DNA of 32,000 nucleotides from Candidatus Nanoarchaeia archaeon (GTDB lineage Archaea > Nanobdellota > Nanobdellia > Woesearchaeales > JANQNC01). Positions 2,174 through 28,748 of this stretch are shown in pieces; position 1 is the first letter of the stretch, and the number at the start of each line of letters is the position of its first letter. The notes below the pieces were generated by a model. The model saw nothing but the letters and a program-made list of their open reading frames with translations, did not search any database and was not told the DNA's origin. The DNA is taken from positions 750,001 through 782,000 of the forward strand of contig JANQNC010000001.1 in NCBI GenBank assembly GCA_028279745.1, given 5' to 3'. The translations under genes and the position numbers were made by a program.

Positions 2174-3316
2174 ATGGTAGACAGCTCAAAAAAAGACATA
2201 GATGAATTAACATATGGATATGACACAGATGTCAATAAATTGGAAGACGAAAACAGAATACTCAAAGAGACAATAGACCAATTAAAAGAAGAAATTGGAA
2301 GACTAAAGACTCCTCCTTTGATCATTGGGGAAGTAAAGGAGCTGGAAAAGAATAATGCAATTGTCAGATTGAGTAATGGTAATGAGTTCTATGTAGCAGT
2401 AAGCAAAGAATGTGAAAAACTAGTGGCAGGGGATTTTGTATTATGTGAACAGAAAAACTTAACTGTGATAAAGAAGGCACATACGTTGAAGAGTTTCAAT
2501 GTAGATAAATTTGTAATGATAGAAAAGCCAACAATAAAATGGACAGAAGTTGGTGGATTAAAAAAACCAATCAAAGAGATAAAAGAAGTTGTAGAATTAC
2601 CTTTGAAGAAGCCCGAGCTGTTTAAGAAAATAGGGATCACACCACCAAAAGGGATATTATTATATGGGCCACCCGGAACTGGAAAAACCTTGTTAGCTAA
2701 AGCCGTTGCAGCTTCAACTAACAGCACATTTATCGAAATAGTAGCATCAGAACTAGTTCAAAAATTCATAGGGGAAGGAGCTAAACTAGTAAAAGAAATA
2801 TTTACACTAGCTAAAGAAAACGCACCAGCAATAATATTCATAGATGAGATTGATTCATTAGCGGCAAAAAGGATCGAGATAGGAACTTCAGGTGAAAGAG
2901 AAGTACAAAGAACATTTATGCAATTACTGGCAGAGATAGATGGATTTAAGGCATTAGGAGATGTGAAAATAATAGGTGCAACAAATCGTAAGGATATTTT
3001 AGATCCTGCAGTTACAAGACCCGGCCGTCTTGATAGATTAATTCATATAGATGTTCCAAAAGGTGAAGAAATAACACAGATACTAAAAATACACACAAAA
3101 GACATGAAATTAGAAAAAGTTGACTTGAAAAAACTAACTTTGGAAATGGAAGGATTCTCGGGAGCAGAAATAAGAGCTTCATGTGTAGAAACAGGATACC
3201 AAGCAATACGAAAGAACAAAACAAAGGTTACCCAAAAAGACTTCAAACTAGGCATACAAAGAGTAAAAGAAGCAGAAGAACAAGAAGGGGAAGACTTTAT
3301 GGGAATGTTTGGCTAG
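2174..3316 (+). CDS. pan: Proteasome-activating nucleotidase (AAA+ ATPase, PAN)
   Basis: N-terminal coiled coil ([23 protein letters not shown]) followed by an OB-like segment. Walker A GPPGTGKT, Walker B IIFIDEID, second region of homology ATNR...PGRLDR. About 380 aa, as expected for PAN. Confidence 0.9.
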
Positions 3317-3912
3317 AATTTAATATCTAACTCTTTTAATTTATTTTTTAAATTTTCAACATCTGTAAAAAGTATTGTTTTCATACCCAGTTCTTCTGCA
3401 GGAGGCAGATTTTTTTCTAAATCATCAACAAACACACAATCGGCCGGTGCTGAAGAAGTGTTTTTTAGCGCAACCCTATAAATTTCTGGGTCTGGTTTAT
3501 TAACACCAACCTCATAGGAAACAACACAATGATCAAAATAAGAACTTACATCGTACTTAGTGTTTAGAAACGGCCACCATTCTTTAGTTTGATCAGACAA
3601 CAAAATAAGATTGTAACCTTTCTCCTTTAAAGAAGATAACAGTTCAGGCATACCTTTATTAGGCTTGAATAAATTTAGCATTTCATTCCTAAGTTTTTTC
3701 CAGTCTTCATCTAAATCAACCCCCTTAAGGTAGGTTTTCCAAAAATCTTCCTCTGAAATTTTACCTGAAAAATAATCCTTATAAGAACTTAAGAAAAATT
3801 TGGTTGAAGTTTCGTTAGAAATACCATACTCTTTTTTCATGTAGTCCCAAAAACACCACAGACCCCTATTAAGAACTACTCCCCCCAAATCAAAAATCAC
3901 CGTTTCAATCAT
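3313..3912 (-). CDS. HAD-superfamily hydrolase (subfamily IA-like)
   Basis: Motif I VIFDLGGVV, LLSDQT (motif II-like) and C-terminal VFVDD (motif IV). Its stop shares CTAG (3313-3316) with the pan stop. Confidence 0.8.
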   Translation of the reverse strand: MIETVIFDLGGVVLNRGLWCFWDYMKKEYGISNETSTKFFLSSYKDYFSGKISEEDFWKTYLKGVDLDEDWKKLRNEMLNLFKPNKGMPELLSSLKEKGYNLILLSDQTKEWWPFLNTKYDVSSYFDHCVVSYEVGVNKPDPEIYRVALKNTSSAPADCVFVDDLEKNLPPAEELGMKTILFTDVENLKNKLKELDIKF

Positions 3913-4025: not shown

Positions 4026-5030
4026 ATGGTGGCTAAAAAGATAGAAAAGTATGAAGACCTTAAGACCATGAATTTTAAGGTTGAGAAAATCAAAACACTA
4101 GATGATTTTCCGCCAATAAAAGGGATAAACTTCGAGAAAAAAGTATCAGTAGGTAAATTAATTGATTCCATGGCAACAACAGGATTTCAGGCTGCTAATC
4201 TAGCTAAAGCTGTACACATAATAAAAGCGATGCAGCGGGAGAAAGCTAAGATTTTTTTGGGTTTCACTTCCAATATGATAACCTCGGGTGTTCGTGAGAT
4301 AATAAATTATATGTGCAAACATAAGATGGTGCATTCTATAACAACAACAGCAGGCGGAGTAGAGGAAGATATTGTTAAATGTTTTAAACCATTTGTTGTT
4401 GGAGAGTTTGATGCAGACGGAAGAGGATTATTACAAAGCGGGATAGCACGGACAGGAAACATCTTTATCCCAAATGACAGATACTTGTATTTTGAAAGAT
4501 TCATGGAAAAATTCTTCGTAAAAATGAATGCAAAACAAAAAAAAGAAGGTAAAGTGATGGCAATAACAGAATTTACAAATTTACTTGGAAAAGAGATTGA
4601 TAATAAAGACAGTTACCTGTATTGGGCACATAAAAATGGAATTCCTGTTTACTGCCCACCAATAATAGACGGTGCAATAGGGGATATGTTATACTTCTTC
4701 AAACAAAAACACCCAGAATTCCAACTAGACTTGGTTGATGATGTTAGAAAAATAGTCGATTATAGTTTAAGCGTAGAAAAAACAGGCGCCATTATTTTGG
4801 GTGCAGGAGTACCAAAACATCATATTTTGAATTCTAACATTCTTAGAGGTGGATTGGATTATACTGTCTATGTGAATACAGCACAAGAATATGATGGGTG
4901 TGACTCAGGAGCAAGAATAGACGAAGCAATAACTTGGGGAAAAGTAAATCCAAAAGGTATGGATGTTAAGGTTTTCTGTGACGCAACAATTGCGTTTCCT
5001 TTGATAATGAGTGCAGTGCTAGAAAAGTAA
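4026..5030 (+). CDS. dys: Deoxyhypusine synthase
   Basis: Characteristic blocks TSNMITSGVRE, TTAGGVEEDI, GAGVPKHH and DEAITWGK. The 334-aa size fits archaeal DHS. Confidence 0.9.
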   Translation: MVAKKIEKYEDLKTMNFKVEKIKTLDDFPPIKGINFEKKVSVGKLIDSMATTGFQAANLAKAVHIIKAMQREKAKIFLGFTSNMITSGVREIINYMCKHKMVHSITTTAGGVEEDIVKCFKPFVVGEFDADGRGLLQSGIARTGNIFIPNDRYLYFERFMEKFFVKMNAKQKKEGKVMAITEFTNLLGKEIDNKDSYLYWAHKNGIPVYCPPIIDGAIGDMLYFFKQKHPEFQLDLVDDVRKIVDYSLSVEKTGAIILGAGVPKHHILNSNILRGGLDYTVYVNTAQEYDGCDSGARIDEAITWGKVNPKGMDVKVFCDATIAFPLIMSAVLEK

Positions 5031-5194: not shown

Positions 5195-6385
5195 ATGTTA
5201 TTTAAGAAAGGAGAACTGGAACTATTGTGGCCATTTTACATTTATTACCTTGTGTTTGGATTGTCAACAATGGTTCTACCTTTCCTCATCATCTACTTCA
5301 AAAACTTAGGATTTTCTTTTCTTCAAATAGCGATAATCACATCCACCATGGGAATAAGTATGTTCTTATTTGAAGTACCGACAGGTGCGTTTGCAGATGG
5401 GTTCAGCAGAAAATACTCAGTAATACTTGGGTTTGTCATTACAGGTATTTCAGTAATACTAATCCCCTTAACTTCAAATTTTTATCTCTTACTTTTGTTT
5501 TGGGTGCTTGCAGGGATAGGTATGACTTTTGTAAGTGGAGCAGAAGAATCATGGGTAATAGATAACCTCAATAAATTCAAAAGAAAAGATCTTCATCATG
5601 AATTCTTTATCAAAGCCCAAAGTCTGGCTGCATTTGGAGCAATATTTGCACCTTTTGTTGGTGCGATAATAGTAAAATCATATTCAATAAAACTTCTCTG
5701 GTTCATATTTGGAATGGGTTTTTTGATAAACTCGTTAATTCTTGCATTGTTTGCGAATGAAATGTACAAACCAAAAAGACTTAAACTTACGAATGCAATA
5801 ACCGAAACGTACAAAAACAGCAAGAAAGGACTAAAATTTACAAAAACACACAAAACAATATTCTTGCTCTTATTAGGGAGCATTTTTACTTTCATGATGG
5901 TAATAGGAGGCAATGGCTGGCAACCGTTTTTAGTTTCACTTTCAATGCCACAATACCAACTAGGATATGTTTATTCTGCATTTGCTGCTTTCACTATGAT
6001 AACCCCGTTCTTATCCAAATTATTCATAAGAAAAAAAGTAAAAAATGTAGTATCATTTATCGTATTAATAAGGATGGCACTTCTTTTATCCTTACTTTTT
6101 ATTTATCCTCCATTTTACCTAATCGCAGCAATAGTTTACATAATGGAGGGAACATTATCATCAATAAAAGGACCACTATTACAACCATACTTCCACAAAT
6201 TCATACCAAGCAAAATAAGAGCGACAGTAATATCTGTCAAAAGCATGGCTACAACAATAGTAATCTCTCTATCAGCTATAGTTGCAGGTGTTTTCTTAGA
6301 TATATTTGGAACACAAAAAGTTTTAGCATTCGGAAGTCTTTTCGGGATACTCGCAATAATAGCATATCAAAAAATAAAAGACTAA
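5195..6385 (+). CDS. MFS-type transporter (about 12 TM segments)
   Basis: Hydrophobic throughout, with about 12 predicted helices and a central basic loop (KPKRLKLTNAITETYKNSKKGLKFTK) between two six-helix halves. An MFS-like GAFADGFSRK loop follows TM2. Start moved from the track TTG 5141 to ATG 5195; ATATTTAAAT at 5164-5173 is placed like a TATA box about 26 nt upstream. Confidence 0.72.
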   Translation: MLFKKGELELLWPFYIYYLVFGLSTMVLPFLIIYFKNLGFSFLQIAIITSTMGISMFLFEVPTGAFADGFSRKYSVILGFVITGISVILIPLTSNFYLLLLFWVLAGIGMTFVSGAEESWVIDNLNKFKRKDLHHEFFIKAQSLAAFGAIFAPFVGAIIVKSYSIKLLWFIFGMGFLINSLILALFANEMYKPKRLKLTNAITETYKNSKKGLKFTKTHKTIFLLLLGSIFTFMMVIGGNGWQPFLVSLSMPQYQLGYVYSAFAAFTMITPFLSKLFIRKKVKNVVSFIVLIRMALLLSLLFIYPPFYLIAAIVYIMEGTLSSIKGPLLQPYFHKFIPSKIRATVISVKSMATTIVISLSAIVAGVFLDIFGTQKVLAFGSLFGILAIIAYQKIKD

Positions 6386-8154
6386 TTAAGAACCTTGAAA
6401 TCAATACATACTCTAAAAGTTCTAGGTGAATAAGTACCACACTTCACAACATCTAAGACTTTAATCTTCTTTTTAGATTTCCTAGCTGCTTTTTCAACCA
6501 TCTGTTTGGCTTTAGAAGGTATTTCTTCCTCTTTCAGGAATGTGTATAGATGGATGATTGTGCCTTTTTTACTAGCAGCAAATGCTACGTCCAAAAATGT
6601 TTCAGCAGACTTAGGCAAAGGCATAACAATACGATCAAATAATCTCTTTTTTGAAATTAGGGTTTCATAAGAAGAGATCATCTCAATAGGATGCATCTCA
6701 TCTTTAGAAGTCACTTCAGCAACACCACGTCTAACATAAGGAAGAATCTTGTTAAAATTTATTTTTCCTGAGCCGATAGGTGTGCCGTGAGACTTACCGT
6801 TAGAGTCCGCTAGATGGAAATAAAGATTAAAGTCTTTCAGTTTTCTTATATGTTCAAGTACTTTTTTATTACTCTTATGCACAAGGAAAGAATGACACAC
6901 ATCAAAACATAAATTTTTCATACCTGTGTCTTGAGCAACATGCAGTTCATGATCTGCATCACCAAAGAATCCTCCACTATCATTCTCAAAAAAGAAATAA
7001 TCAAAATACTTTCTTAACTTTCTGATATTTCTTATGAATAAAGGACAATCCTTGGTTGATTCGTCTGATTTTTGGAAAGGATGAACAACAGCCTTAATAT
7101 CATGTTTAATGCATAACTCACCTAAAACAGCAAATATTTTTAGTTCGTCTTTGATGTTTTTCTTGTCTAAGCTCAACCTTTCTCCTTTGAAATTATAGAA
7201 GGGCATGTGGAGAATAATATCTTTAATGCCTTTTTTCTTTAAAGATCTTATCTCAACTTCAAGTCTTGCTTTTTTCTCAAATAAATCGGGCAGATTAAGA
7301 TGAAACTCAAAAATTCTTGGTTGTTCAACCAATCTTTCACTTAGTTCAGCAAGCTGAGTGTCACTTTTTAGACCTATTAGCTGATTGTAAAATTCAGGAG
7401 TTATCTTTCTAACATCACCCAAAATAACTTTTGCATTATTAAGATTGTTTAATTTTACATTTTCTTCTGCATATCTGTGCGCTTCGGGATTTAACTCAAC
7501 ACCAAAAACATTCCTAGCATCTGAATTTTTAGCAATAGAACAAACAAAAGGACCACACCCAGAAAACATAACCAAAACATCCTCATCTTTCTTAACCTGT
7601 TCAATCACTCTTTTTCGCTCATATGATGAACGTGTGCTAAAATAAACATCCTCTACATTAAGCTTCAGTTGAACATTGTTTTCCCTATGATTTGTTTCTT
7701 TGGTTCTTACACCTGCTAAGTGCTTCATTTTCTGAGTTCTAAATCTACCTTTATGAATCCCTTCCTTTCTAAGAACTGTTTTAATATTATTTTGAGTATC
7801 TAATAATGTGTTTGCAATTATTTTTTCTTTTCTCTTTAACGAGTCAGGAACTTCAAGAATGGCAACATTCCCCACAACATCATAAGAGGTAATAAGTTGT
7901 TCGGATTCTTTCTCTGACAAATGTTTTGATAATGCTTTTTTTAGATCTGTCTCTTTTCTTACTTTCTTCTTTAACTTCTTTTTTGAGAAAGACAGCAGTG
8001 AAAACTTATCTTTTAGATCATCTTTTTTAGTTGCAACAAAAAAAAGAAAATCGTTTTGGGCTAATATCTCATAGTTATTATCAACTAGATCCTTGCCTCT
8101 TGCATAGTTCAAAACTTTTTGCGCTTCCTTAACTGGGACTTTGACAACAATCAA
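6382..8154 (-). CDS. Trm5/Taw2 (Met-10+) family tRNA methyltransferase with a nested xylose-isomerase-like/endonuclease IV-like TIM-barrel domain
   Basis: Methyltransferase blocks: YDVVGNVAIL, VYFSTRSSYER, VLVMFSGCGPF (SAM loop), VELNP, ILGDVR. After about 250 aa come FDRIVMPLPKSAETFLDVA, GTIIHLYTF and YSPRTFRVCIDFKV. The inserted block (aa about 255-505) has LHMP, VVHPF, FENDSGG, FDVCHSF and FHLADSNGKSHGTPIGSGKINF. It starts on TTG, overlapping the fen1 TGA (TTGA at 8151-8154); there is no in-frame ATG until aa 143. Confidence 0.8.
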   Translation of the reverse strand: MIVVKVPVKEAQKVLNYARGKDLVDNNYEILAQNDFLFFVATKKDDLKDKFSLLSFSKKKLKKKVRKETDLKKALSKHLSEKESEQLITSYDVVGNVAILEVPDSLKRKEKIIANTLLDTQNNIKTVLRKEGIHKGRFRTQKMKHLAGVRTKETNHRENNVQLKLNVEDVYFSTRSSYERKRVIEQVKKDEDVLVMFSGCGPFVCSIAKNSDARNVFGVELNPEAHRYAEENVKLNNLNNAKVILGDVRKITPEFYNQLIGLKSDTQLAELSERLVEQPRIFEFHLNLPDLFEKKARLEVEIRSLKKKGIKDIILHMPFYNFKGERLSLDKKNIKDELKIFAVLGELCIKHDIKAVVHPFQKSDESTKDCPLFIRNIRKLRKYFDYFFFENDSGGFFGDADHELHVAQDTGMKNLCFDVCHSFLVHKSNKKVLEHIRKLKDFNLYFHLADSNGKSHGTPIGSGKINFNKILPYVRRGVAEVTSKDEMHPIEMISSYETLISKKRLFDRIVMPLPKSAETFLDVAFAASKKGTIIHLYTFLKEEEIPSKAKQMVEKAARKSKKKIKVLDVVKCGTYSPRTFRVCIDFKVLN

Positions 8155-9217: not shown

Positions 9218-10333
9218 TTATACTTTCAAGAAGAAAACTTGGTTCTTAAAATCTTCATCAAGCATAACTTGTGCTTTCTTAGTCAAGTCGCCAGGACCAA
9301 CAAATAAAGTCTGTAATTGTTTGGATTGGCCTTTAACAAATGCACTGCTTAAATCACCGTCGCTGAATCTCTTCTTGTTTTTAGCTTTACAGAAGAAATC
9401 TGTTGTGCCAATAGCAGAAGGCACCGAGATAACACATTCAAATTCATTATTTGCCTTAATTATATCATACTCTATAACCGCAATGTCTTTTTCTTTAAAC
9501 TTATCAAATGCTGTTTTGAAGAATTCATCTTCTTCATCTTCAGGTTTTTTTATTTCAGGGGCTTCAGGTTCAAGTTCTGCTGTTTTTTGCATCTCGTGCT
9601 TAATCAACTCTTTAACTTTAGCCATTATGTCTGCATCAATGTTATCCAAACCTTTAGTTTTCTTAGCAACCTCTTTCTTTAGTCTTTTCTGAACGTCCTG
9701 TTTAGGTTCTGGCTGCTTTTCTTCAACTTTAGGTTCTTCTTTCTTAACCTCTTTTTTCTCCTCTTTAACTTCAACCTTTGGTGTTTCTTTCTTCACATCT
9801 TTCTTTTCTTCTTTAACTTCAACTTTAGGTTCTTCTCTCTTTACTTCTTGTTTTCTCTCAACTTTCTCTATTTTCTTTATTTGAGGTTTGTCTTCCTTCT
9901 TAGATAACAGATCAGAAATAATCTCTCTAACGTCACTATCTGAAGTCAAGAAAAATTTCCAGAACAACTCCTTATTGCCGTTAACAGTAACATTCAAAGG
10001 CATAGCAAAATCTCTTAATGTCTTAATAACAACCTTATCAGAAGCGCCAAGATGAGCGTCCCTTAAAACTTTTTTCTTCTTGAGCTGATCAAAAATCTGC
10101 TTCTCTTTATCAGTTAGGTAGCTAGTTAAATCTAATAATTGTTCTTCCTGACCTGGAAGATAGTAAAAAGGGCTTCCCCCTTTCTTAACATGTGTAATCT
10201 TAAGCTTTTTTGCATCTACTAACTGTGATAGATGCGCTCCAGCAAACAAAGTATCTAAGCCTGTCGGCTTGGTTATATCAGAGGGTAAAACAGGTCCCTT
10301 ATTCTTTACAATCTGCATAATCTTTTCAATCAT
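9218..10333 (-). CDS. Hypothetical protein: N-terminal winged-helix-like region, Lys/Glu-rich 16-aa repeats, conserved-looking C-terminal domain
   Basis: Long ORF in the same direction as endA and fen1, with short gaps (46 nt and 32 nt). No family recognised. See findings. Confidence 0.7.
   Translation of the reverse strand: MIEKIMQIVKNKGPVLPSDITKPTGLDTLFAGAHLSQLVDAKKLKITHVKKGGSPFYYLPGQEEQLLDLTSYLTDKEKQIFDQLKKKKVLRDAHLGASDKVVIKTLRDFAMPLNVTVNGNKELFWKFFLTSDSDVREIISDLLSKKEDKPQIKKIEKVERKQEVKREEPKVEVKEEKKDVKKETPKVEVKEEKKEVKKEEPKVEEKQPEPKQDVQKRLKKEVAKKTKGLDNIDADIMAKVKELIKHEMQKTAELEPEAPEIKKPEDEEDEFFKTAFDKFKEKDIAVIEYDIIKANNEFECVISVPSAIGTTDFFCKAKNKKRFSDGDLSSAFVKGQSKQLQTLFVGPGDLTKKAQVMLDEDFKNQVFFLKV
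9716..9835 (-). repeat. In-frame 48-nt tandem repeat (about 2.5 copies) encoding EEPKVEVKEEKKDVKK / ETPKVEVKEEKKEVKK / EEPKVEEK
   Basis: On the plus strand, CTTCAAC(T/C)TT... recurs at about 9721, 9769 and 9817 (48-nt period). A 16-aa periodicity is visible in the translation. Confidence 0.75.
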
Positions 10334-10998: not shown

Positions 10999-11018
10999 AA
11001 GTTCAATTTGTAAAAAAT

Positions 11019-12568: not shown

Positions 12569-13081
12569 ATGAAACTATCCAATAAACTAATAGATGAAGT
12601 AATAACAGAAACTGCAGGAGAAGACGTAATCAAACTAGTTCACAAACTAAAAAACAAAAAGAATTTCTCAGAATTTAAACTTGCAGAAGCAATAGAACAA
12701 GAGATAAACCAGACAAGAAATCAATTGTATAGGTTGCTTCGTTTCAACTTAGTTTCTTTTAATAGAAAAAAAGACAAGAAGAAAGGATGGTATATCTACT
12801 ATTGGACATTCAACTTGAAGAGAATTAAATATCTATACAAACAAGTTAGAGTACAAAAGATAGAAAGACTAAAAGACAGACTAGAAAGAGAGAACAGTGA
12901 GACTTTTTTCAAATGTACAGACGGGTGTATGAGACTTAATTTTGATCAAGCTAGTGAATTTGAGTATAAATGCCCAGAATGCGGTGATTTGATAGAACAA
13001 GAAGATAACGAGAAAAAGAAAAAAGAGATAGAAAAAGAGATCAAAAAGTTAGAAAAAGAAGTTAAAGCATTAAAATTCTAA
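12569..13081 (+). CDS. tfe: Transcription factor E (TFE alpha, TFIIE-alpha homologue)
   Basis: N-terminal winged helix (DVIKLVHKL...FKLAEAIEQEINQTRNQLYRL...GWYIYYWTFN) followed by a Zn ribbon (FKCTDGC...YKCPECG) and a K/E-rich tail. Confidence 0.8.
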   Translation: MKLSNKLIDEVITETAGEDVIKLVHKLKNKKNFSEFKLAEAIEQEINQTRNQLYRLLRFNLVSFNRKKDKKKGWYIYYWTFNLKRIKYLYKQVRVQKIERLKDRLERENSETFFKCTDGCMRLNFDQASEFEYKCPECGDLIEQEDNEKKKKEIEKEIKKLEKEVKALKF

Positions 13082-13220
13082 TTTAATTGTTTATTTTTAC
13101 GAAAAGAAGTTCTAAATCTTAATTAAACTTGAAAACAATATAATTCTAGAGGGAAAAAATAGGCCTTGAAGTCCTCATAAAAACTAAACAAAAGAAAAAC
13201 TTTTGTTGGAGGAAAAGAAA

Positions 13221-13475
13221 ATGGAAGGAAACAAACCAGAAAAAAAATTTACAACAGGACTAATAGAAGCAACAGTATGGAAAAACAATATAACAAATAA
13301 AGAAGGACAAGAAAGACAGTTTAGAAGTATAAGCTTCACAAAAAACTACAAAGATCCAAATGATGAATGGAAAACAACCAGTAATTTGAATATAACAGAT
13401 ATTCCAAAAGCAATGGTTGTATTAAGTAAAGCTTATGAATATCTAATTCTAAAAGGAGAAGAAGTTGAAGCTTAG
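13221..13475 (+). CDS. Small conserved-looking protein, possible PC4/YdbC-like ssDNA-binding fold
   Basis: GGAGG at 13208-13212 lies 8 nt before ATG 13221. Three to four predicted beta strands (LIEATVWKN, RQFRSISFTKNY, EWKTTSNLNI) are followed by one helix (DIPKAMVVLSKAYEYL), as in PC4-like domains. The functional call is weak. Confidence 0.5.
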   Translation: MEGNKPEKKFTTGLIEATVWKNNITNKEGQERQFRSISFTKNYKDPNDEWKTTSNLNITDIPKAMVVLSKAYEYLILKGEEVEA

Positions 13476-13552
13476 ATCTTTTTCTTTTATTTTTTAGTTT
13501 TTCAATATAATCTATATTATAATCTAGATTGATTAAATCATTAGAAATGTGC

Positions 13553-13574
13553 TACCCCTATATTGCATATGGAA
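13553..13574 (-). promoter_or_regulatory. Origin recognition box (ORB)-like element, inverted orientation
   Basis: Minus-strand read is TTCCATATGCAATATAGGGGTA: a TTCCA..dyad followed by a GGGGT G-string. It matches the 14088-14109 box at 16 of 22 positions. Confidence 0.7.
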
Positions 13575-14087
13575 AATGTTATTTGAGAATTGAGGTTTGG
13601 TTGTTGTTTTTTGTATATCTATAAAATATATTTTATATTATATATTTTATAAAATTTATTAATTTTTGATTTTTAGTTTTAGTTTTTAACTTTTATTTTC
13701 TATATTGAAAATAATTGATATATGATATAATAAATAATATAAAAATAATAATATAATAATAATAAATAATAAAAAGAATAATAAATAAAAAAATAATAAA
13801 AAAAATAATAAAATAGAATTTAAAATTTAATTTTTATAGACGATAAAATTAATAAATAATATAAGTAAAATATGTTAAATTGATTTTTATAGTTTTAAAA
13901 TAAATTAAAATTATATATGAAAAAAAGTTAATAAATAGTATAAATAAAATTAATAAAGAATATAAATAAAAAATTGATCATGTATTTTCTAGACTTTATG
14001 TTAAATTCTATAAAATGATATAAATTAGATCTTTATTGATTATTAAATTAAATGAAAATTGATGGTTCCAAAAATTTTTAAAGAAAG

Positions 14088-14109
14088 TTCCATAGGAAAT
14101 GATGGGGTG
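14088..14109 (+). promoter_or_regulatory. Origin recognition box (ORB)-like element
   Basis: TTCCATAGGAAATGATGGGGTG has the dyad TTCCATAGGAA plus a GGGGT string. A half-site GGTTCCA lies at 14064-14070. Confidence 0.7.
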
Positions 14110-14150
14110 GGTGTGAAGCACTAAAAGATAAAGTTTAAATATACCTTCAT

Positions 14151-14171
14151 TTCAATTGGAAATAGGGGGTA
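14151..14171 (+). promoter_or_regulatory. ORB-like element overlapping the orc1/cdc6 ribosome-binding site
   Basis: TTCAATTGGAAATAGGGGGTA has the same architecture as the other boxes. Its GGGGGT lies 8 nt before ATG 14179, so it may equally be, or double as, the Shine-Dalgarno sequence. Confidence 0.5.
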
Positions 14172-14178
14172 GGTTTAG

Positions 14179-15390
14179 ATGAAAACAAAAGAAGAGTTAG
14201 TTAATTTTTTCGAGGATTTTCTACAAAAAAAATCTTTATTCAAAAATAAAAAGAATTTACAAGCAAATCACACACCAGAAGAATTACAGCATAGAGATGA
14301 GCAAGTAAATCAAATAGCAGGAATAATGGCATCATCACTAAGATTAGAAAAACCATCAAACTTATTTGTATATGGAAAGACAGGAACAGGAAAAACAGTA
14401 ACAATCAAATATACAACAAATAAAATAAAAGAAGTAGCGGAAAAAAAAGATATACCCCTAAAAATAGTATATGTAAACTGTAAGCTAAAAAAGGTAGCAG
14501 ACACAGAATATAGATTAGTAGCACAACTTCTAAAAGAATTTGGCAGAGAAGTACCAATAACAGGATTACCAACAGACGAAATATACAAAATGTTCTATGA
14601 ACTAGTAGATCAAAAAGAACAACTAATAATATTAGTACTAGATGAAATAGACGAACTAGTAAAAAGAATAGGAGATGAAATATTATACAATTTTACAAGA
14701 ATAAATTCAGAACTACAAAAAACACAGATAAGTATGATAGGAATATCAAATAATCTAACCTTCATAAATGATGTAGATCCAAGAATAAAAAGCTCATTAT
14801 CAGAAGAAGAAATAATATTCCCACCATATAATGCAGTACAAATACAAGATATTCTGAAAAACAGATGTAAAGAAGCATTCAAACCAAATACATTAGAACA
14901 AGGATTAATAGAAAAATGCGCAGCATATGCAGCAAGAGATCATGGAGATGCAAGAAGAGCGCTTGAGCTATTAAGAGTGGCTGGAGAAGTAGCAGAAAGA
15001 AAAGGACAAGAACAAATAATGATACAACAGCTAGATGAAGCAGAAGAAAAAATAGAGAAAGATAGAGTAATAGATGGAATAAGAGCACAACCAAAACAAT
15101 TTCATCTAACACTATACTCAATATTGCACATAAATAAGAAAAAAGAGAACTTCATTTTCACAGGAGAAATATATGAATTGTATAAATCATTATGTGGACA
15201 GACTGGTTTAAGGCCATTAACACAAAGAAGAGTTTCTGATATCATAGCTGAATTAGATATGTTAGGAGTAATCAACGCTAAAACAATCTCAAAAGGCAGA
15301 TATGGAAGAACAAGAGAGATATCTATGATGTTACCACCACAAATGGTAGATAAAGTAGAAACAATAGTCAAGGAGACATTAGACCTGTAA
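14179..15390 (+). CDS. cdc6: Orc1/Cdc6 replication initiator
   Basis: AAA+ Walker A GKTGTGKT, Walker B LVLDEIDEL, sensor motifs, ARDHGDARRALELLR (typical Orc1/Cdc6 lid) and a C-terminal winged helix (LTQRRVSDIIAELDMLGVI...GRYGRTREI). Confidence 0.93.
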   Translation: MKTKEELVNFFEDFLQKKSLFKNKKNLQANHTPEELQHRDEQVNQIAGIMASSLRLEKPSNLFVYGKTGTGKTVTIKYTTNKIKEVAEKKDIPLKIVYVNCKLKKVADTEYRLVAQLLKEFGREVPITGLPTDEIYKMFYELVDQKEQLIILVLDEIDELVKRIGDEILYNFTRINSELQKTQISMIGISNNLTFINDVDPRIKSSLSEEEIIFPPYNAVQIQDILKNRCKEAFKPNTLEQGLIEKCAAYAARDHGDARRALELLRVAGEVAERKGQEQIMIQQLDEAEEKIEKDRVIDGIRAQPKQFHLTLYSILHINKKKENFIFTGEIYELYKSLCGQTGLRPLTQRRVSDIIAELDMLGVINAKTISKGRYGRTREISMMLPPQMVDKVETIVKETLDL

Positions 15391-15392
15391 AA

Positions 15393-16940
15393 ATGCAAGA
15401 ACAAGTAAATAAACAACAAATAGTGGAATATTTTTTAGGAAAAGAGATCTTAATAGAGGAAAAAACAATAGAAAAAATAGATGAAAATAATTTTGACACA
15501 ATAAAAAAATTTGTAGAAGCTAAAGAAGGGGAAGACACCTTATTCTTAGATGAAGAAATAAATCAAGTTATAGACACGCTAAAAGAAAATGAAACTAAAC
15601 CAAAAACACAAGGGAATGAAATAACACAAGAAGAAAATAAAGAAGAACAAAAAAAAGAAACAACTAAAGAAAAAATAGAAAGAGGAACAATAAAAATAAT
15701 AAAAAATTATGATAAGGAAGTGACAGAAAAGAAAACAGTACAACACTTTGTTGAAAGTTTCAAACAAAGATACAAAAAAATAGAAAAATTATTGAGAAAT
15801 AGACAAGAGTTAAGATCAATAACCTCAATAAATCGAATTCTACAAAGAAAAGAAAGAGACAGCGTATCATTAATAGGGATAGTAAGAGAAAAACAAGTAA
15901 CAAAAAATAATCATATAATATTAATCTTAGAAGATCTAACAGGAGAAATAAAAGTTTTAGCAACAACAAACAATGAAAAGACACACAAAGTAGCAAAAGA
16001 AGTATCTTTAGATGAAGTAATAGGAATAACAGGGATGAATGGGGAGGAAATAGTATTTGCATCAACAATAATAAGACCAGAAGTGACAATAACAAGAGAA
16101 TTCAAAAAAGCACCCAAAGAATCTTATGCCTTATTTATGGGAGATCTACACTTCGGATCAAAAGTATTTCTAAAAGAAAAATTTGAAAAATTCAAAAAAT
16201 GGCTAAAATGCGAAGCAGGGACTGAAGAACAGAAAAAAACAGTCAAAAAAATCAAGTACTTATTTTTAGTGGGTGATCTGATAGAAGGAGTGGGAATATA
16301 TCCAAGCCAGGAAGAAGATTTAGAGATAAAAGATGTTTATGATCAATATAAAGAGTTAGAAAAATTTGTAAAAGAAATTCCAGATCATATACACGTTGTA
16401 ATAATACCTGGAAATCACGATGCAGTAAGACTGTCAGAACCACAACCACCATTAGCAGAAGAGTATGTACCAAATTTGTACCAAATGGAAAATGTACATC
16501 TATTAAGCAATCCAAGCAGAGTAAATATAGATTATTCGGATGAGTTTCCAGGATTTGACATATTACTTTATCACGGATTTAGTTTTCCGTTCTATGCAGA
16601 CAGCGTAGAAAAAATAAGAGAAAAAGGTGGACAAAAAAGATCAGACCTAATAATGCAGTACTTAATGGAAGTAAGACATTTAGCACCATCACACACATCA
16701 AACCTTTACTCACCAGACAAAAAAGAAGACGCGATGGTGATAGATTCAGCACCAGACTTTTTTGTAACAGGACACATTCATAGAGTAAGTGCAGTAAATT
16801 ACAAAAACATGACACTGCTAAATTGTTCGTCTTGGCTAGAGGAAACAGAATATCAACAAAAAGTTGGACTAATCCCAGAACCAGCAAGAGCAATAATTGT
16901 AAATTTAAAAACAAGAGATGTTAAAATCATAAAATTTTGA
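15393..16940 (+). CDS. DNA polymerase D small subunit (DP1, 3'-5' exonuclease, calcineurin-like phosphoesterase)
   Basis: OB region followed by phosphoesterase motifs MGDLHFGS, LVGDLIEG, IPGNHD and VTGHIH. It starts 2 nt after the cdc6 stop. Confidence 0.92.
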   Translation: MQEQVNKQQIVEYFLGKEILIEEKTIEKIDENNFDTIKKFVEAKEGEDTLFLDEEINQVIDTLKENETKPKTQGNEITQEENKEEQKKETTKEKIERGTIKIIKNYDKEVTEKKTVQHFVESFKQRYKKIEKLLRNRQELRSITSINRILQRKERDSVSLIGIVREKQVTKNNHIILILEDLTGEIKVLATTNNEKTHKVAKEVSLDEVIGITGMNGEEIVFASTIIRPEVTITREFKKAPKESYALFMGDLHFGSKVFLKEKFEKFKKWLKCEAGTEEQKKTVKKIKYLFLVGDLIEGVGIYPSQEEDLEIKDVYDQYKELEKFVKEIPDHIHVVIIPGNHDAVRLSEPQPPLAEEYVPNLYQMENVHLLSNPSRVNIDYSDEFPGFDILLYHGFSFPFYADSVEKIREKGGQKRSDLIMQYLMEVRHLAPSHTSNLYSPDKKEDAMVIDSAPDFFVTGHIHRVSAVNYKNMTLLNCSSWLEETEYQQKVGLIPEPARAIIVNLKTRDVKIIKF

Positions 16941-16949
16941 GATAAAAGA

Positions 16950-19900
16950 ATGGAATGCAGCAAGCAAATACAAAAATACTTCGACAGGATCGAAAGAGAA
17001 ACAAAAGAAGCACATGAAATAGCTACAAAAGCAAGAAAAAAAAGCTATGATCCAGAAGATCAAGTAGACATAAAACTAGCTAAAAACATGGCAGAAAGAG
17101 TAGAAGGACTAATTTCTACAGTTGCACCACAAATCGTTGGAAGTGGGATGACAAAAAGAATTCTAGAACTAGAAAAAAAATATGGAACTTTATCCTGGGA
17201 AGTAGCACTACAAATAGCATTAGAAGTAGCACAAGAAAAATTCTGCAAATTTAAAGACAAAAAAGAAGCGATGGAAGTGGGTATAAGGGCAGGATTTACA
17301 TACCACACAGTTGGGATCGTAGCAGCACCCCTAGAAGGTTTTGTAGAATTAAGAATAAAACAAAGACAAGACGGAAAAGAATATTTTTCAATGGTATATG
17401 CGGGCCCAGTAAGAGGAGCAGGAGGGACAGCAGCATCAGTATCAGTATTAATCGCAGACTACGTAAGAAAGAATATGGGTTACTCAGAATATGACCCAAC
17501 AGAAGAAGAAACAAACAGATACTTTACGGAATTAGATGATTATCATGAAAGAGTCACAAATTTACAATATCACCCATCAAAAGATGAAGTATTATTCTTA
17601 GCAAAAAACTGCCCAATAGAAGTAAATGGGGATCCAACAGAAGAAATAGAAGTAAGCAACTACAAAGATCTGAAAAGAGTAGAAACAAACAGGATAAGGG
17701 GAGGGATGTGTTTAGTATTTTCAATGATGGCGCTAAAAGCACCAAAACTATGGAAAAGAATAGAAAAATGGCCAGAAGGTTCTGAATTTGATATGGGACA
17801 ATGGCAGTTTGTCAAAGAGTTCATGAAAATACAAAAAACAATCAAAGCAAAAGAATCATCAAGCGGAGAAAAAGGAGGCAAAGAAGAAAAGCTAAAACCA
17901 AACTACACATACATATCAGACTTAGTTGCTGGAAGACCAGTACTAACAGACCCGATGGCAAAAGGAGGATTTAGATTAAGATATGGAAGAGGGAGAACTT
18001 CAGGATTTTCAGCAGCATCAGTACATCCAGTAACAATGCTTCTTTTGAACAATTATATAGCAGTAGGAACACAACTAAAAGTAGAAAGACCAGGTAAAGC
18101 AGCAGCAATAACAACCTGTGATACAATAGAAGGACCAACAGTAAAACTAGAAAACGGCAACGTAATAAAAATCAAAACAGAACAAGAAGCAAGACATTAT
18201 CTTCCAGAAATAAAAGAAGTACTATTCTTAGGAGATATGATGTTCAACTACGGAGACTTTTCAGAAAACGGACACAAATTAGTTCCACCAGGGTACTGTG
18301 AGGAGTGGTGGATACAAGAGCTAGAAAAAAAGGCAATAGACTTGTTTGGAACAATAGACTATGAAAAAATAGCAGAGACAATAGGGATAGATGTTGAGAG
18401 AACAGAACAACTGCTAAAAAATAACTTGAATGGGATAAAAGCAGAAGAAGCAATAAACATCTCAAAAACGTTAAACACACCTTTACACCCAGAATACACA
18501 TATCATTGGAAAGACATAACAAAAGAAGAATTTTTACCCTTATTTGAATTAATGAAAAAAGCAGAAACAAAAAAAGAAGAAGGCAGGGTAAGAAAAATAA
18601 TAATCCCATTCAAAGAAAAAGAAAAAAGAACACTAGAAAAAGTAGGAATACAACACGCTTTAGCAACTAACGAATATATAGTGATAGAAAAGGATCAAGC
18701 AGAGATAATACAAGAGCTGATTCTTAAAAACATGGATGTTGATATCAAAAAGGAAACAAGCGTTAATGAAACAACATTAGATATATTAAATTCCATAAAC
18801 GAAATAAAACAAAGAGACAAATCAGGAACCTACATAGGATCAAGGATGGGAAGGCCAGAAAAGGCAAAACAAAGAAAGTTAACAGGCAGTCCGCAAGTAT
18901 TATTTCCAGTGGGAAAAGAAGGCGGAAGATTAAGATGCTTCCAATCTGCACTAGATGAAGGAAAAATAAACGCACAATTCTCAACACACTACTGCGACAA
19001 ATGTAAAAAAGAAACAGTATACAGAAGATGTGAAGATTGTGGGACTAGAACAAAAATACAATACAACTGTAAACAATGTGGTGTGAAGTACGAACCTTGC
19101 ATACACAATCCACAACCATACAAAGATATGTCAATAAACATAAAACACTACTTTGAACAAGCCTTGAAGAAATTAAAAACACGAAACTATCCAGATTTAA
19201 TAAAAGGCGTTAGAGGAACCTCAAACAAAGATCACGCACCAGAACATCTAGTAAAAGGAATACTAAGAGCAAAACATGATATTTTTGTAAACAAAGACGG
19301 AACAATAAGATATGATTGCAGCGAGTTACCAATAACACACTTCAAAGCAAAAGAACTAGGTGTTAGTGTAGAAAAACTAAAAGAATTAGGTTACGAACTA
19401 GACATAAAAGGAAAACCATTAGAAAACGAAAACCAAGTACTGGAGTTAAGACCGCAAGATATCATACTGCCTGCAGCAACAGAAGGAGTGGATGAACCAT
19501 GCGATGAAGTGATGTTCAGGGTAGCAAACTTCGTAGATGAAATGCTAGAAAAATTATACGAAGAAAAACCATTCTACAACCTGAAGAAAAAAGAAGACTT
19601 AATAGGACACTTAGTAATTGGGTTGGCACCACACATATCAGCAGGAATGATAGGAAGAATAATAGGATTTTCAAAAACACAAGGGTTCTTTGCACACCCA
19701 ATGTATCATGCAGCCATGAGAAGAGACTGTGATGGAGACGAGGCATGTGTAATATTATTGATGGATGCTTTCTTAAACTTTTCAAAAAGTTATCTACCAG
19801 ATAGAAGAGGCGGAAGAACAATGGACGCACCATTAGTATTAACATCTATATTACTGCCTTCGGAAGTTGATGATATGGTTTTAGGACTAGACACAGTATG

Positions 19901-20480
19901 GAAATATCCTTTAGAATTTTATGAGGCTGCTTTGGAGTATAAAAACCCGTGGGATGTCAAAGTTGAACAGATAAACAATCGTTTATTCACTGAGAAACAA
20001 TACGAAGATATAGGATACACACATAAAACATCAGACATAAATGATGGTATAACATACTCAGCATACAAACTCTTACCTTCAATGCAGGAAAAACTAATGG
20101 GGCAGATGGAGATAGCAGAAAAAGTAAGAGCAGTAGATGAAGTTAATGTGGCAACATTAGTAATAGATAAACACTTCATGAAAGATATTAAAGGTAATTT
20201 GAGAAAATTTTCACAACAACAATTCAGGTGTGTTAAATGCAATGAAAAATTTAGAAGACCTCCTTTGATTGGAAAATGCATAAAATGCAATGGAAAGATA
20301 ATATTTACAATAGCAGAAGGATCAGTTATTAAGTATTTGGAACCTAGTCTAAGTTTGGCTAAAAAGTATAATCTAGACCCGTATCTGAAGCAGAATTTAG
20401 AGTTAACCAAAAAGAGGATAGAATCAGCATTTGGTAGAGAGAAGGAAAAACAAGAAGGATTAGGGAAATGGTTTGGGTAA
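16950..20480 (+). CDS. DNA polymerase D large subunit (DP2, catalytic)
   Basis: 1176 aa with DP2-typical blocks (GGMCLVFSM, RLRYGRGRTSGFSA, GRPEKA, HPMYHAAMRRDCDGDE). Cys clusters (CDKCKK..CEDCG; CVKCNEKF...CIKCNG) and a C-terminal PIP box QEGLGKWF. The length gives no room for an intein. Confidence 0.95.
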   Translation: MECSKQIQKYFDRIERETKEAHEIATKARKKSYDPEDQVDIKLAKNMAERVEGLISTVAPQIVGSGMTKRILELEKKYGTLSWEVALQIALEVAQEKFCKFKDKKEAMEVGIRAGFTYHTVGIVAAPLEGFVELRIKQRQDGKEYFSMVYAGPVRGAGGTAASVSVLIADYVRKNMGYSEYDPTEEETNRYFTELDDYHERVTNLQYHPSKDEVLFLAKNCPIEVNGDPTEEIEVSNYKDLKRVETNRIRGGMCLVFSMMALKAPKLWKRIEKWPEGSEFDMGQWQFVKEFMKIQKTIKAKESSSGEKGGKEEKLKPNYTYISDLVAGRPVLTDPMAKGGFRLRYGRGRTSGFSAASVHPVTMLLLNNYIAVGTQLKVERPGKAAAITTCDTIEGPTVKLENGNVIKIKTEQEARHYLPEIKEVLFLGDMMFNYGDFSENGHKLVPPGYCEEWWIQELEKKAIDLFGTIDYEKIAETIGIDVERTEQLLKNNLNGIKAEEAINISKTLNTPLHPEYTYHWKDITKEEFLPLFELMKKAETKKEEGRVRKIIIPFKEKEKRTLEKVGIQHALATNEYIVIEKDQAEIIQELILKNMDVDIKKETSVNETTLDILNSINEIKQRDKSGTYIGSRMGRPEKAKQRKLTGSPQVLFPVGKEGGRLRCFQSALDEGKINAQFSTHYCDKCKKETVYRRCEDCGTRTKIQYNCKQCGVKYEPCIHNPQPYKDMSINIKHYFEQALKKLKTRNYPDLIKGVRGTSNKDHAPEHLVKGILRAKHDIFVNKDGTIRYDCSELPITHFKAKELGVSVEKLKELGYELDIKGKPLENENQVLELRPQDIILPAATEGVDEPCDEVMFRVANFVDEMLEKLYEEKPFYNLKKKEDLIGHLVIGLAPHISAGMIGRIIGFSKTQGFFAHPMYHAAMRRDCDGDEACVILLMDAFLNFSKSYLPDRRGGRTMDAPLVLTSILLPSEVDDMVLGLDTVWKYPLEFYEAALEYKNPWDVKVEQINNRLFTEKQYEDIGYTHKTSDINDGITYSAYKLLPSMQEKLMGQMEIAEKVRAVDEVNVATLVIDKHFMKDIKGNLRKFSQQQFRCVKCNEKFRRPPLIGKCIKCNGKIIFTIAEGSVIKYLEPSLSLAKKYNLDPYLKQNLELTKKRIESAFGREKEKQEGLGKWFG

Positions 20481-28013: not shown

Positions 28014-28748
28014 CTACTCAAGAACTTTAACTCTGCCGGGCTTGACTTCAAATAGTTCACCTTCACCAAGAAGGGTTGTGATCAATGACTCTATGTCATC
28101 ACCTTTTAACTTTACTAATTCATCAACATCAACACCATCACCTTCGTCTAACTTTCTAATAGTCTTAAGAAGAGATTCTATAGGATTATCATCACTTTCT
28201 TCATCTTCAATAGTTTCTTCTTCTGCAATATTACTTTCCTCATCATCAGCTTTTTCTGGAAGTTTAGGTTCTTCTTTAACTTCCGTTTTTTTAGTCTCTT
28301 CAATAATCTGTTCAGTAACGGGTTTTTCTACGACAAGGTTTTCAGCAGAAACAAAATCATCACCAACTAACTCTAACTCCTTTTTTCTATAATCCAACCA
28401 ATCTTTATCAATAGTTTTACAACTTTCACAAACAACATATCTCATACTACCATACTCTTTAACTTTACCGATTATATTGATACAGTCGCCAACATCAAAA
28501 TTATCCAAAAGCACAGAACCAAAATTTCTCACTTCAATTACTGCAGTACCATCATCAAAACTTAAAGCTTCAAAATTAGCTTGGATGTTTTTCCCAACAA
28601 CAAAACCCATCAGATTAACTCTAGAAACCTTAATACCATTAACTGCAATAAAATCAGGCTCAAACTCTTGAACACCTTTAGAAAAATCACCATTAAGAAG
28701 ATCAACAACTCTTATCTTGTACGCTATAAGTCTATCTACCATGATCAT
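28014..28748 (-). CDS. RPA32/Stn1-like OB-fold protein with acidic linker and C-terminal winged helix
   Basis: VSRVNLMGFVVGK...LSFDDGTAVIEVRNF...VGDCINIIGKVKEYGSMRYVV follows the RPA32-type OB pattern (V.lvG.V...l.DgTG.i.v...G.yv.v.G.l). An E/D-rich linker follows, then ...LITTLLGEGELFEVKPGRVKVL (winged-helix-like). ATGA overlap with the mcm stop. Confidence 0.55.
   Translation of the reverse strand: MIMVDRLIAYKIRVVDLLNGDFSKGVQEFEPDFIAVNGIKVSRVNLMGFVVGKNIQANFEALSFDDGTAVIEVRNFGSVLLDNFDVGDCINIIGKVKEYGSMRYVVCESCKTIDKDWLDYRKKELELVGDDFVSAENLVVEKPVTEQIIEETKKTEVKEEPKLPEKADDEESNIAEEETIEDEESDDNPIESLLKTIRKLDEGDGVDVDELVKLKGDDIESLITTLLGEGELFEVKPGRVKVLE

Follow-up and report, generated by a model that had tools for sequence, protein, structure and literature searches.

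A TIM barrel nested in the tRNA methyltransferase Trm5b of Woesearchaeota and Nanoarchaeota

Can a tRNA methyltransferase carry a whole second enzyme inside its catalytic fold, and what would that enzyme do there? The question is raised by one gene in a 32,000-nucleotide stretch of the genome of Candidatus Nanoarchaeia archaeon (GenBank assembly GCA_028279745.1, contig JANQNC010000001.1, positions 750,001 to 782,000). This stretch is termed the window, and its own numbering is used throughout. The gene encodes Trm5, one of the tRNA-modification enzymes studied in most detail, on which the maintenance of the reading frame depends. An earlier note, made from the sequence alone, described it as a single Trm5-type methyltransferase interrupted at 6640-7392 by a complete triosephosphate isomerase (TIM) barrel of the endonuclease IV (Endo IV)/xylose-isomerase-like type. 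Pfam, profile searches against PDB, AlphaFold2 (AF2) and Foldseek agree on this architecture. The barrel is where it was placed; its true boundaries, 6652-7389, are slightly inside the proposed span. The gene is composed of the following parts.

6382..8154, minus strand: complete gene of Trm5b and its nested TIM barrel; 590 codons and a stop at 6382-6384 (open reading frame list, codon check)
7975..8154, minus strand: Trm5 D1 domain, residues 1 to about 60 (Pfam Trm5_N, 1.9e-5)
7705..7944, minus strand: Trm5 D2 domain (TYW2_N_2), residues 71-150, including the invariant R139 (Pfam, 3.5e-19)
7390..7695, minus strand: first part of the D3 methyltransferase domain, residues 154-255 (Pfam TRM5-TYW2_MTfase stretch 154-256; alignment to 5yac, 2yx1 and 5wt1)
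6652..7389, minus strand: inserted (beta-alpha)8 TIM barrel, Y256-S501, 246 residues (boundaries from the alignment with plain orthologues; Pfam, PDB profile searches, AF2, Foldseek)
6385..6651, minus strand: second part of D3, residues 502-590 (second TRM5-TYW2_MTfase stretch)

Host methyltransferase and inserted barrel

The 590-residue reading frame contains neither a stop codon nor a frameshift. It begins with a TTG codon at 8154 and has a 4-nt overlap with the stop of FEN1, and a word-indexed search of public data retrieved an identical protein (P0001). The D1, D2 and D3 domains are all present and in order; the Pfam match to TRM5-TYW2_MTfase (3.1e-42) consists of two stretches. The best sequence match in PDB is the Trm5b protein of P. 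abyssi (5yac, 5e-51), with residues 2-252 aligned to 5yac 19-259 and residues 506-588 to 5yac 262-344. About 250 residues replace a two-residue turn of 5yac, in agreement with the spacing noted earlier, and lie in the loop that joins the GDVR strand of the Rossmann fold to its DRIxMPLP strand. In Foldseek, the full model matches 5yac across the insertion (E = 1.6e-29, TMt 0.75). The Pfam stretches, the 5yac alignment and this structural match all point to one methyltransferase over both flanks. Among NCBIfam models Trm5b is ranked first; the score for the Trm5b equivalog NF047730 is 225 bits against a cut-off of 600, the match being split in two by the insert.

The first part of D3 carries Y171, E179, R180, the S-adenosylmethionine (SAM) loop VLVMFSGCGPF, E220 (VELNP) and D247 (GDVR). 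The second part includes the catalytic loop FDRIVMPLPK (D507, R508, P512, P514), GTIIHLYTF and YSPRTFRVCIDFKV; all motifs quoted in the earlier note were found in place. Residues R139, Y171, E179, R180, E220, D247, D507, R508 and P514 are invariant or near-invariant in homologues. The counterparts of R145, Y177, E185, R186, D223, D251 and P267 of M. jannaschii Trm5 (MjTrm5) are R139, Y171, E179, R180, E220, D247 and P514, with E220 being a glutamate where MjTrm5 has an aspartate. The asparagine N265 of the MjTrm5 NLPK loop corresponds to P512 (MPLPK) in all nested proteins. The PLP reading was thus given correctly before, but it is not specific to the nested form: the same PLP is found in all plain DPANN Trm5b proteins examined. 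It is therefore a lineage trait, and a change linked to the insert is ruled out. Taken together, sequence and model show a normal archaeal Trm5b made up of residues 1-255 and 502-590. We infer from the conserved SAM-binding and catalytic residues, and from the positional orthology described below, that this part would still make 1-methylguanosine at position 37 (m1G37) on tRNA.

The inserted segment matches the AP_endonuc_2 family (PF01261) with 29.4 bits in the whole protein and 31.8 bits when residues 255-505 are searched alone. The latter value confirms the TIM-barrel match expected for this segment and is marginal relative to the Pfam gathering score of 31.1 bits. The same family is matched by 23 of the 31 nested homologues (best 6.5e-14), and free-standing relatives score 41-69 bits. 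The AF2 model of the whole protein, made with a 31-sequence alignment, has two intact, compact domains (predicted local distance difference test, pLDDT, 93.3; predicted template modelling score, pTM, 0.83), and the insert modelled alone has eight strands (pLDDT 96.7, pTM 0.93). Foldseek yielded 113 PDB matches of the insert at E <= 1e-3. The top ones listed, at template modelling (TM) scores of 0.6-0.75, are nearly all members of the superfamily, those at about 0.7 being MJ1311, UlaE, AsbF, ketose epimerases, UVDE and the African swine fever virus (ASFV) apurinic/apyrimidinic (AP) endonuclease. That the predicted fold is the xylose-isomerase-like, or AP_endonuc_2, barrel is certain.

The subfamily of the barrel is not settled by structure; sequence comparison gives a sharper picture. 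A profile of nested inserts only matched M. tuberculosis endonuclease IV (3.8e-6) and Apn1 and no other PDB entry. The family profile, built of nested inserts and 64 free-standing relatives, matched MJ1311 (1.8e-20), eight Endo IV entries (1e-9 to 5e-6), MbnB (1e-5), Apn1 (3e-5) and UVDE (1e-4), followed by E. coli Endo IV and the ASFV AP endonuclease, with sugar isomerases and epimerases reaching only 0.02-0.09. The insert is thus placed in the AP_endonuc_2 superfamily, as a relative of MJ1311 and, at a greater distance, of Endo IV; it is not itself an Endo IV. Its conserved residues are listed below.

6715..7368, minus strand: active-site span of the barrel (conservation; alignment to M. tuberculosis Endo IV; codons verified)
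7366-7368, minus strand: K263, strand b1
7306-7308, minus strand: E283, strand b2
7207-7209, minus strand: H316, strand b3, in H-x-P-F
7081-7083, minus strand: H358, strand b4
6985-6987, minus strand: E390, strand b5
6901-6903, minus strand: D418, strand b6
6892-6894, minus strand: H421, strand b6
6814-6816, minus strand: H447, strand b7
6805-6807, minus strand: D450, strand b7
6787-6789, minus strand: H456
6715-6717, minus strand: E480, strand b8

These residues are invariant or near-invariant in the 31 nested proteins. In a wider set of 67 nested and 66 free-standing representatives, conservation is about 100% for K263, E283, H316, H358, E390, D418, H421, H447, D450 and E480, and the only residues seen at position 456 are H, D and E. 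The core Glu-Asp-His-Glu ligands of strands 5-8 (E390, D418, H447, E480) are invariant in all 133. The metal-ligand series H / H / E / D-x-x-H / H-x-x-D / E recognised in the earlier note is thus present and conserved in both forms. It is best read as a putative two- or three-metal centre of the Endo IV/MJ1311 type. Given the residues retained on both sides, it is likely that both halves of the protein are catalytically competent.

Distribution and origin of the nested form

The insert is found at the same site in 31 homologues, far more than chance would give, namely the identical protein and 30 others of 504-611 aa with 36-58% identity, and about 70 plain Trm5b proteins of about 335 aa rank below them in the word-indexed search. 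A search of 1.84 billion cluster representatives with the insert profile yielded 523 relatives; the best 150 of these include about 50 nested clusters (50% identity), which is a lower bound. Species-representative genomes were counted over the best 80 Trm5b loci. The nested form occupies 38 of them, including those of two single-cell genomes and of the 1.84-Mb closed chromosome OY970338.1. Nested and plain copies never occur together in one assembly among the 80 loci. The genomes with the nested form are labelled Woesearchaeota, Nanoarchaeota, Nanobdellota or by the generic name 'binchicken'. Many records of the type 'uncultured Methanosarcinales archaeon isolate binchicken_...' (L020, L022, L024, L028 and others) carry a DPANN-type Trm5b close to that of Woesearchaeota, and these Methanosarcinales labels look like generic or misassigned placeholders.

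A trivial explanation of the architecture would be an assembly chimera, a frameshifted gene pair or a spliced-out intein. The frame is uninterrupted, and AF2 gives one compact two-domain protein. Identical junctions recur in at least 38 species-level genomes, the single-cell genomes and the closed chromosome among them, so that dozens of independent assemblies show the same architecture. The GC content of the insert is 0.327, and both GC content and GC content at third codon positions (GC3) are equal to those of the host sequence on either side. At the junctions the sequence is ...PEF / YNQLIGLK and ...TLIS / KKRLFDR. As observed before, both lack the residues of an intein (Cys or Ser at the N-junction; His-Asn followed by Cys, Ser or Thr at the C-junction), and the 590-aa protein has no Pfam match to a Hint/intein domain. 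The open frame, the recurrence, the base composition and the junctions rule out an assembly artefact or an intein, for which the remaining probability is negligible. It is practically certain that the architecture is real and ancient. In the literature searched we found no paper describing a Trm5 with a nested barrel, in line with the earlier note, which knew of no such Trm5 or Taw2. Public annotation of the nested proteins is 'hypothetical protein' or 'tRNA (guanine37-N1)-methyltransferase'.

Free-standing proteins of about 250-290 aa are homologous to the insert over its full length (E as low as 1e-59; hhalign 100%), with P0129, P0141, P0144, P0145 and P0110 as examples. They start with the opening motif of the insert, IGLKS..QL..RL..P..E..L, and have an identical set of conserved residues. 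These proteins are acidic, not fused to Trm5b, and occur in both bacteria and archaea; their top NCBIfam matches are the CbiR phosphodiesterase and DNase IV. The bacterial members belong to recurring clusters (L001, L002, L004, L014) of two kinds, DegT aminotransferase - barrel - class III aminotransferase (Aminotran_3; seen twice) and DegT - PIG-L - barrel - SDR, or lie beside an NAD-epimerase. The L014 cluster additionally contains a methyltransferase, an NAD-epimerase and an M24 peptidase. By gene content, the bacterial clusters look like a putative aminosugar or aminocyclitol-type pathway. One free-standing relative adjoins GFO_IDH_MocA. At the loci examined, the archaeal members have no consistent partner gene, and none of the free-standing relatives is located beside trm5b.

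Pairwise distances of host and insert are correlated (r = 0.43; Mantel test, 0 of 2000), which supports a probable co-inheritance of the two parts. Mean identity is 37% for the insert and 57% for the host, indicating that the insert evolves faster. In neighbour-joining (NJ) trees, nested and plain proteins are intermingled for the methyltransferase part, and nested and free-standing ones for the barrel. These trees are star-like and poorly resolved and fit a single gain with repeated loss and multiple gains alike; a single origin of the insert was not retained as a conclusion. In the simplest history, a complete gene would have been inserted in frame into the loop.

Upstream of fen1-trm5b are a conserved gene with no assignment, the tRNA splicing endonuclease gene (EndA) and a divergent tRNase Z gene. 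The order tRNase Z / EndA / unassigned gene / FEN1 / trm5b is common to genomes with nested and plain forms, and the plain orthologue in L013 has the same 4-nt overlap with FEN1. The nested gene is the positional orthologue of plain trm5b. As the same synteny surrounds the plain gene, the neighbourhood says nothing about the insert, and the adjacency of EndA, tRNase Z and FEN1 was rejected as a clue to tRNA splicing or base-excision repair. The unassigned gene of the window (9218-10333, minus strand) encodes a 371-aa protein with a Lys/Glu-rich repetitive middle and no Pfam or PADLOC match. Related genomes have a gene of 344-425 aa, also with no Pfam match, in the same place between EndA and FEN1. 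No meaningful PADLOC match links the locus to a defence system.

Segment 304-5030 of the window has the ordinary housekeeping content of an archaeal genome: a class I tRNA synthetase of the Tyr/Trp type (304-1413), two minus-strand HAD hydrolases (1410-2090 and 3313-3912), an AAA ATPase (2174-3316) and deoxyhypusine synthase (4026-5030). The region 13081-14179 contains no open reading frame, has a GC content of about 0.19 and carries degenerate direct repeats (AAATTAATAAATARTATAARTAAAAT). It is directly upstream of Cdc6/Orc1 (14179-15390), PolD DP1 (15393-16940) and DP2 (16950-20480), the cumulative GC skew reaches its minimum near 11000, and an MCM gene is located at 28745-30751 (minus strand). 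This region is probably the chromosomal replication origin.

Possible roles of the barrel

The explanation that we put forward is given an even chance. A free-standing TIM-barrel gene would have been inserted whole and in frame into a short loop of the ordinary trm5b gene of this lineage. The barrel would hang from that one loop with neither fold disturbed, and it could be tolerated there because both termini of a (beta-alpha)8 barrel are close neighbours on its non-catalytic face, as inferred from topology. The resulting chain would have two active sites, that of Trm5b and that of a metal-dependent barrel, working independently. The barrel would perform hydrolytic (phosphoester) chemistry on the substrate of its free-standing relatives. 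After the fusion the nested copy would have taken over the barrel activity, and both halves would therefore stay under selection. Several observations weigh against parts of this explanation. One group concerns the chemistry, where the case for a hydrolytic, multinuclear-metal reaction, read from the ligands and profiles, is about balanced; the other concerns the independence of the two sites.

Most of the xylose-isomerase-like superfamily consists of sugar or sugar-phosphate isomerases, epimerases or dehydratases. The barrel could be such an enzyme, unrelated to nucleic acids and fused by accident. Foldseek ranks sugar epimerases, UlaE and AsbF slightly above UVDE and AP endonucleases, MJ1311 also matches epimerase models, and the bacterial DegT, PIG-L, SDR, NAD-epimerase and aminotransferase clusters, together with the GFO_IDH_MocA neighbour, are no less compatible with sugar chemistry than with phosphoester hydrolysis. 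In the sequence profiles, however, Endo IV, MbnB and UVDE are favoured over the sugar enzymes by 5-7 orders of magnitude. Ketose 3-epimerases have a mononuclear E-D-H-E metal site, and the three extra invariant histidines and the H/D/E position of the insert exceed the need of such a site. Moreover, DPANN genomes encode little sugar metabolism. We consider this alternative rather improbable.

The kinship to Endo IV could also be taken at face value, the barrel being the DNA AP endonuclease of the lineage, housed in Trm5b and acting in base-excision repair with the adjacent FEN1. The best functionally characterised sequence relatives are indeed Endo IV, Apn1 and UVDE, seven to eight of the nine Endo IV ligand positions are matched, the gene overlaps fen1, and in Table 1 of Kiyonari et al. 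(PMC2770678) MJ1311 is listed as the M. jannaschii protein predicted to be homologous to Endo IV. Nevertheless, the fen1-trm5b adjacency is older than the insert, and the barrel falls far short of all Endo IV models, with no match for the insert and 13.6 against 129.65 bits for its relatives. Endo IV D229 has no conserved equivalent and the counterpart of H231 is merely H, D or E, which also tells against our own explanation. Identical active sites occur in the bacterial free-standing members within the aminosugar-type clusters. Finally, the Endo IV-like Pyrococcus paralogue PF1383 has no AP or DNA-binding activity (PMC2770678); Endo IV kinship alone is therefore no predictor of DNA repair. 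A repair function of this kind seems very unlikely.

The independence of the two sites is challenged by a different set of features. The median net charge is +6 (isoelectric point, pI, 8.9) for nested inserts and -8 (pI 5.7) for free-standing relatives (p = 1e-10). The D1 domain is absent in about a third of nested homologues: it has been lost at 14 of 36 nested versus 2-3 of 41 plain loci, and in 22 of 65 nested versus 0 of 70 plain proteins. In Candidatus Nanoarchaeia archaeon STD2_164 the nested Trm5b (L076, 2653-4413) keeps a recognisable barrel with decayed ligands (H316K, H358L, E390S, H421A, H447G), as if the barrel had a structural or binding role too; it may be a natural pseudo-enzyme intermediate. 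The D1-less nested genes (L016, L025, L028, L029, L031, L032, L034-L036, L038, L041, L043-L045) start at the D2 boundary, and on the closed chromosome (L031) there is no separate D1 open reading frame upstream of trm5b. D1 loss as an exclusive mark of nested forms was rejected, since two plain D1-less genes exist (L083, L093); the enrichment remains.

These features would suit a tRNA-directed second activity, in which Trm5b serves as a scaffold targeting the anticodon loop and the tRNA that it holds is the substrate of the Endo IV-like metal centre. The earlier note had suggested that the barrel could couple G37 modification to a second metal-dependent chemistry or bring a nuclease-like domain to tRNA, for which the support is weak and indirect. 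The D1 domain of Trm5 binds the tRNA elbow, the canonical archaeal tRNA intron is located at 37/38, and Trm5 flips out G37. The metal centre might act on a phosphoester at or near 37/38, either at an abasic or damaged site or where the splicing endonuclease has left nucleotide 37 with a 2',3'-cyclic or 3'-phosphate, or it might carry out a further step of modification. The stability of the nested architecture over at least 50 clusters and the sequence kinship to Endo IV, which extends to the motifs H-x-P-F/Y and H-x-x-D, would also be consistent with this activity. On the other side, the charge shift is partly due to AT-rich composition, D1-less plain Trm5b exists, and the adjacency of EndA and tRNase Z is ancestral synteny shared with plain trm5b genomes. 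The comparison of nested with free-standing barrels revealed no nested-specific active-site changes and no nested-specific conserved basic patch beyond K413 and K431. The scaffold model is, in our view, not probable. Its more definite form, with the nested barrel as a metallo-phosphoesterase or other metal-dependent enzyme acting on tRNA at or next to nucleotide 37 via the grip of Trm5b on the anticodon loop, is a little less probable still. Such an enzyme might process the 2',3'-cyclic phosphate end that intron excision leaves at 37, or cleave or repair a nucleotide 37 that is damaged or abasic. If true, it would represent a new class of tRNA-processing or quality-control activity derived from an Endo IV-like fold.

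We therefore lean towards the two-enzyme chain with independent sites, because the nested barrel has neither a specific basic patch nor active-site changes and its free-standing relatives are not located beside trm5b. Action independent of tRNA is itself held at somewhat under an even chance, slightly likelier than a tRNA-directed role, which we regard as fairly unlikely.

A whole second, apparently active enzyme is embedded in the Rossmann fold of Trm5 and kept across a large part of Woesearchaeota/Nanoarchaeota, an arrangement not encountered in the literature searched. In one survey TIM barrels were among the preferred hosts of domain insertions (PMC13114784); the nested Trm5b is an unusual case of a TIM barrel as the inserted module. 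The finding also flags a widespread, uncharacterised barrel subfamily, both nested and free-standing, with an Endo IV-like ligand set for a putative multinuclear metal centre. If the barrel acts on tRNA, a new tRNA-processing activity would be defined; if it does not, the protein would be a clean natural example of two unrelated enzymes in one chain in genome-reduced archaea. Plain, nested, nested D1-less and nested proteins with a decayed barrel provide a natural series for study.

Comparison with known systems

The host part of the protein has the same D1-D2-D3 organisation, SAM loop and catalytic Arg/Tyr/Glu/Asp/Pro residues as the archaeal Trm5b of P. abyssi (5YAC) and aTrm5 of M. jannaschii (2YX1/2ZZN). 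The nested form differs in the added 246-aa barrel, in PLP for NLP and in the frequent absence of D1.

Endo IV (Nfo, Apn1; E. coli 1QTW, M. tuberculosis 5ZHZ) and the archaeal PfuAPE have the same barrel as the insert, which is about 35 residues shorter. Endo IV H69, H109, E145, D179/H182 and H216 correspond to H316, H358, E390, D418/H421 and H447 of the insert, and E261 corresponds to E480 by strand position; H231 aligns with H456. Thus, seven of the nine trinuclear-zinc ligands have invariant counterparts. The Endo IV motifs H-A-P-Y and H-x-N-D are mirrored by H-M-P-F and H-L-A-D. The invariant K263 and E283 of strands 1-2 are outside the nine Endo IV catalytic residues (E. coli list, PMC2770678). 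The insert does not match the Endo IV models TIGR00587 (cut-off 129.65 bits) and PRK01060 (244-376), for which free-standing relatives score 13.6-27 bits.

CbiR, a cobamide-remodelling phosphodiesterase of the AP endonuclease 2 superfamily, is the top NCBIfam match of MJ1311 as well as of the free-standing relatives. It depends on a metal and hydrolyses a phosphoester of a small molecule resembling a nucleotide (PMC7733943), and the superfamily therefore includes small-molecule phosphodiesterases that do not act on DNA. Its model NF041277 (cut-off 105 bits) does not match the insert, and gives 20-29 bits for the free-standing relatives and 68 bits for MJ1311; no cobamide genes were found near the free-standing relatives at the loci examined.

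The closest solved sequence relative of the insert is MJ1311 of M. jannaschii (PDB 3WQO, deposited as a 'D-tagatose 3-epimerase-like protein'), which is also the top Foldseek match (TM 0.72). The match covers positions 22-261 of the family profile, with the GLK strand outside the aligned range; hhalign gives 96.8% with the nested-only profile, and identity is about 18-24%. MJ1311 shares the series E / H-x-P-F / H / E / D-x-x-H / H-x-x-D / E with the insert and, unlike it, is free-standing. On this comparison of sequences, MJ1311 looks like a member of a sister subfamily rather than of the same family as the nested barrel.

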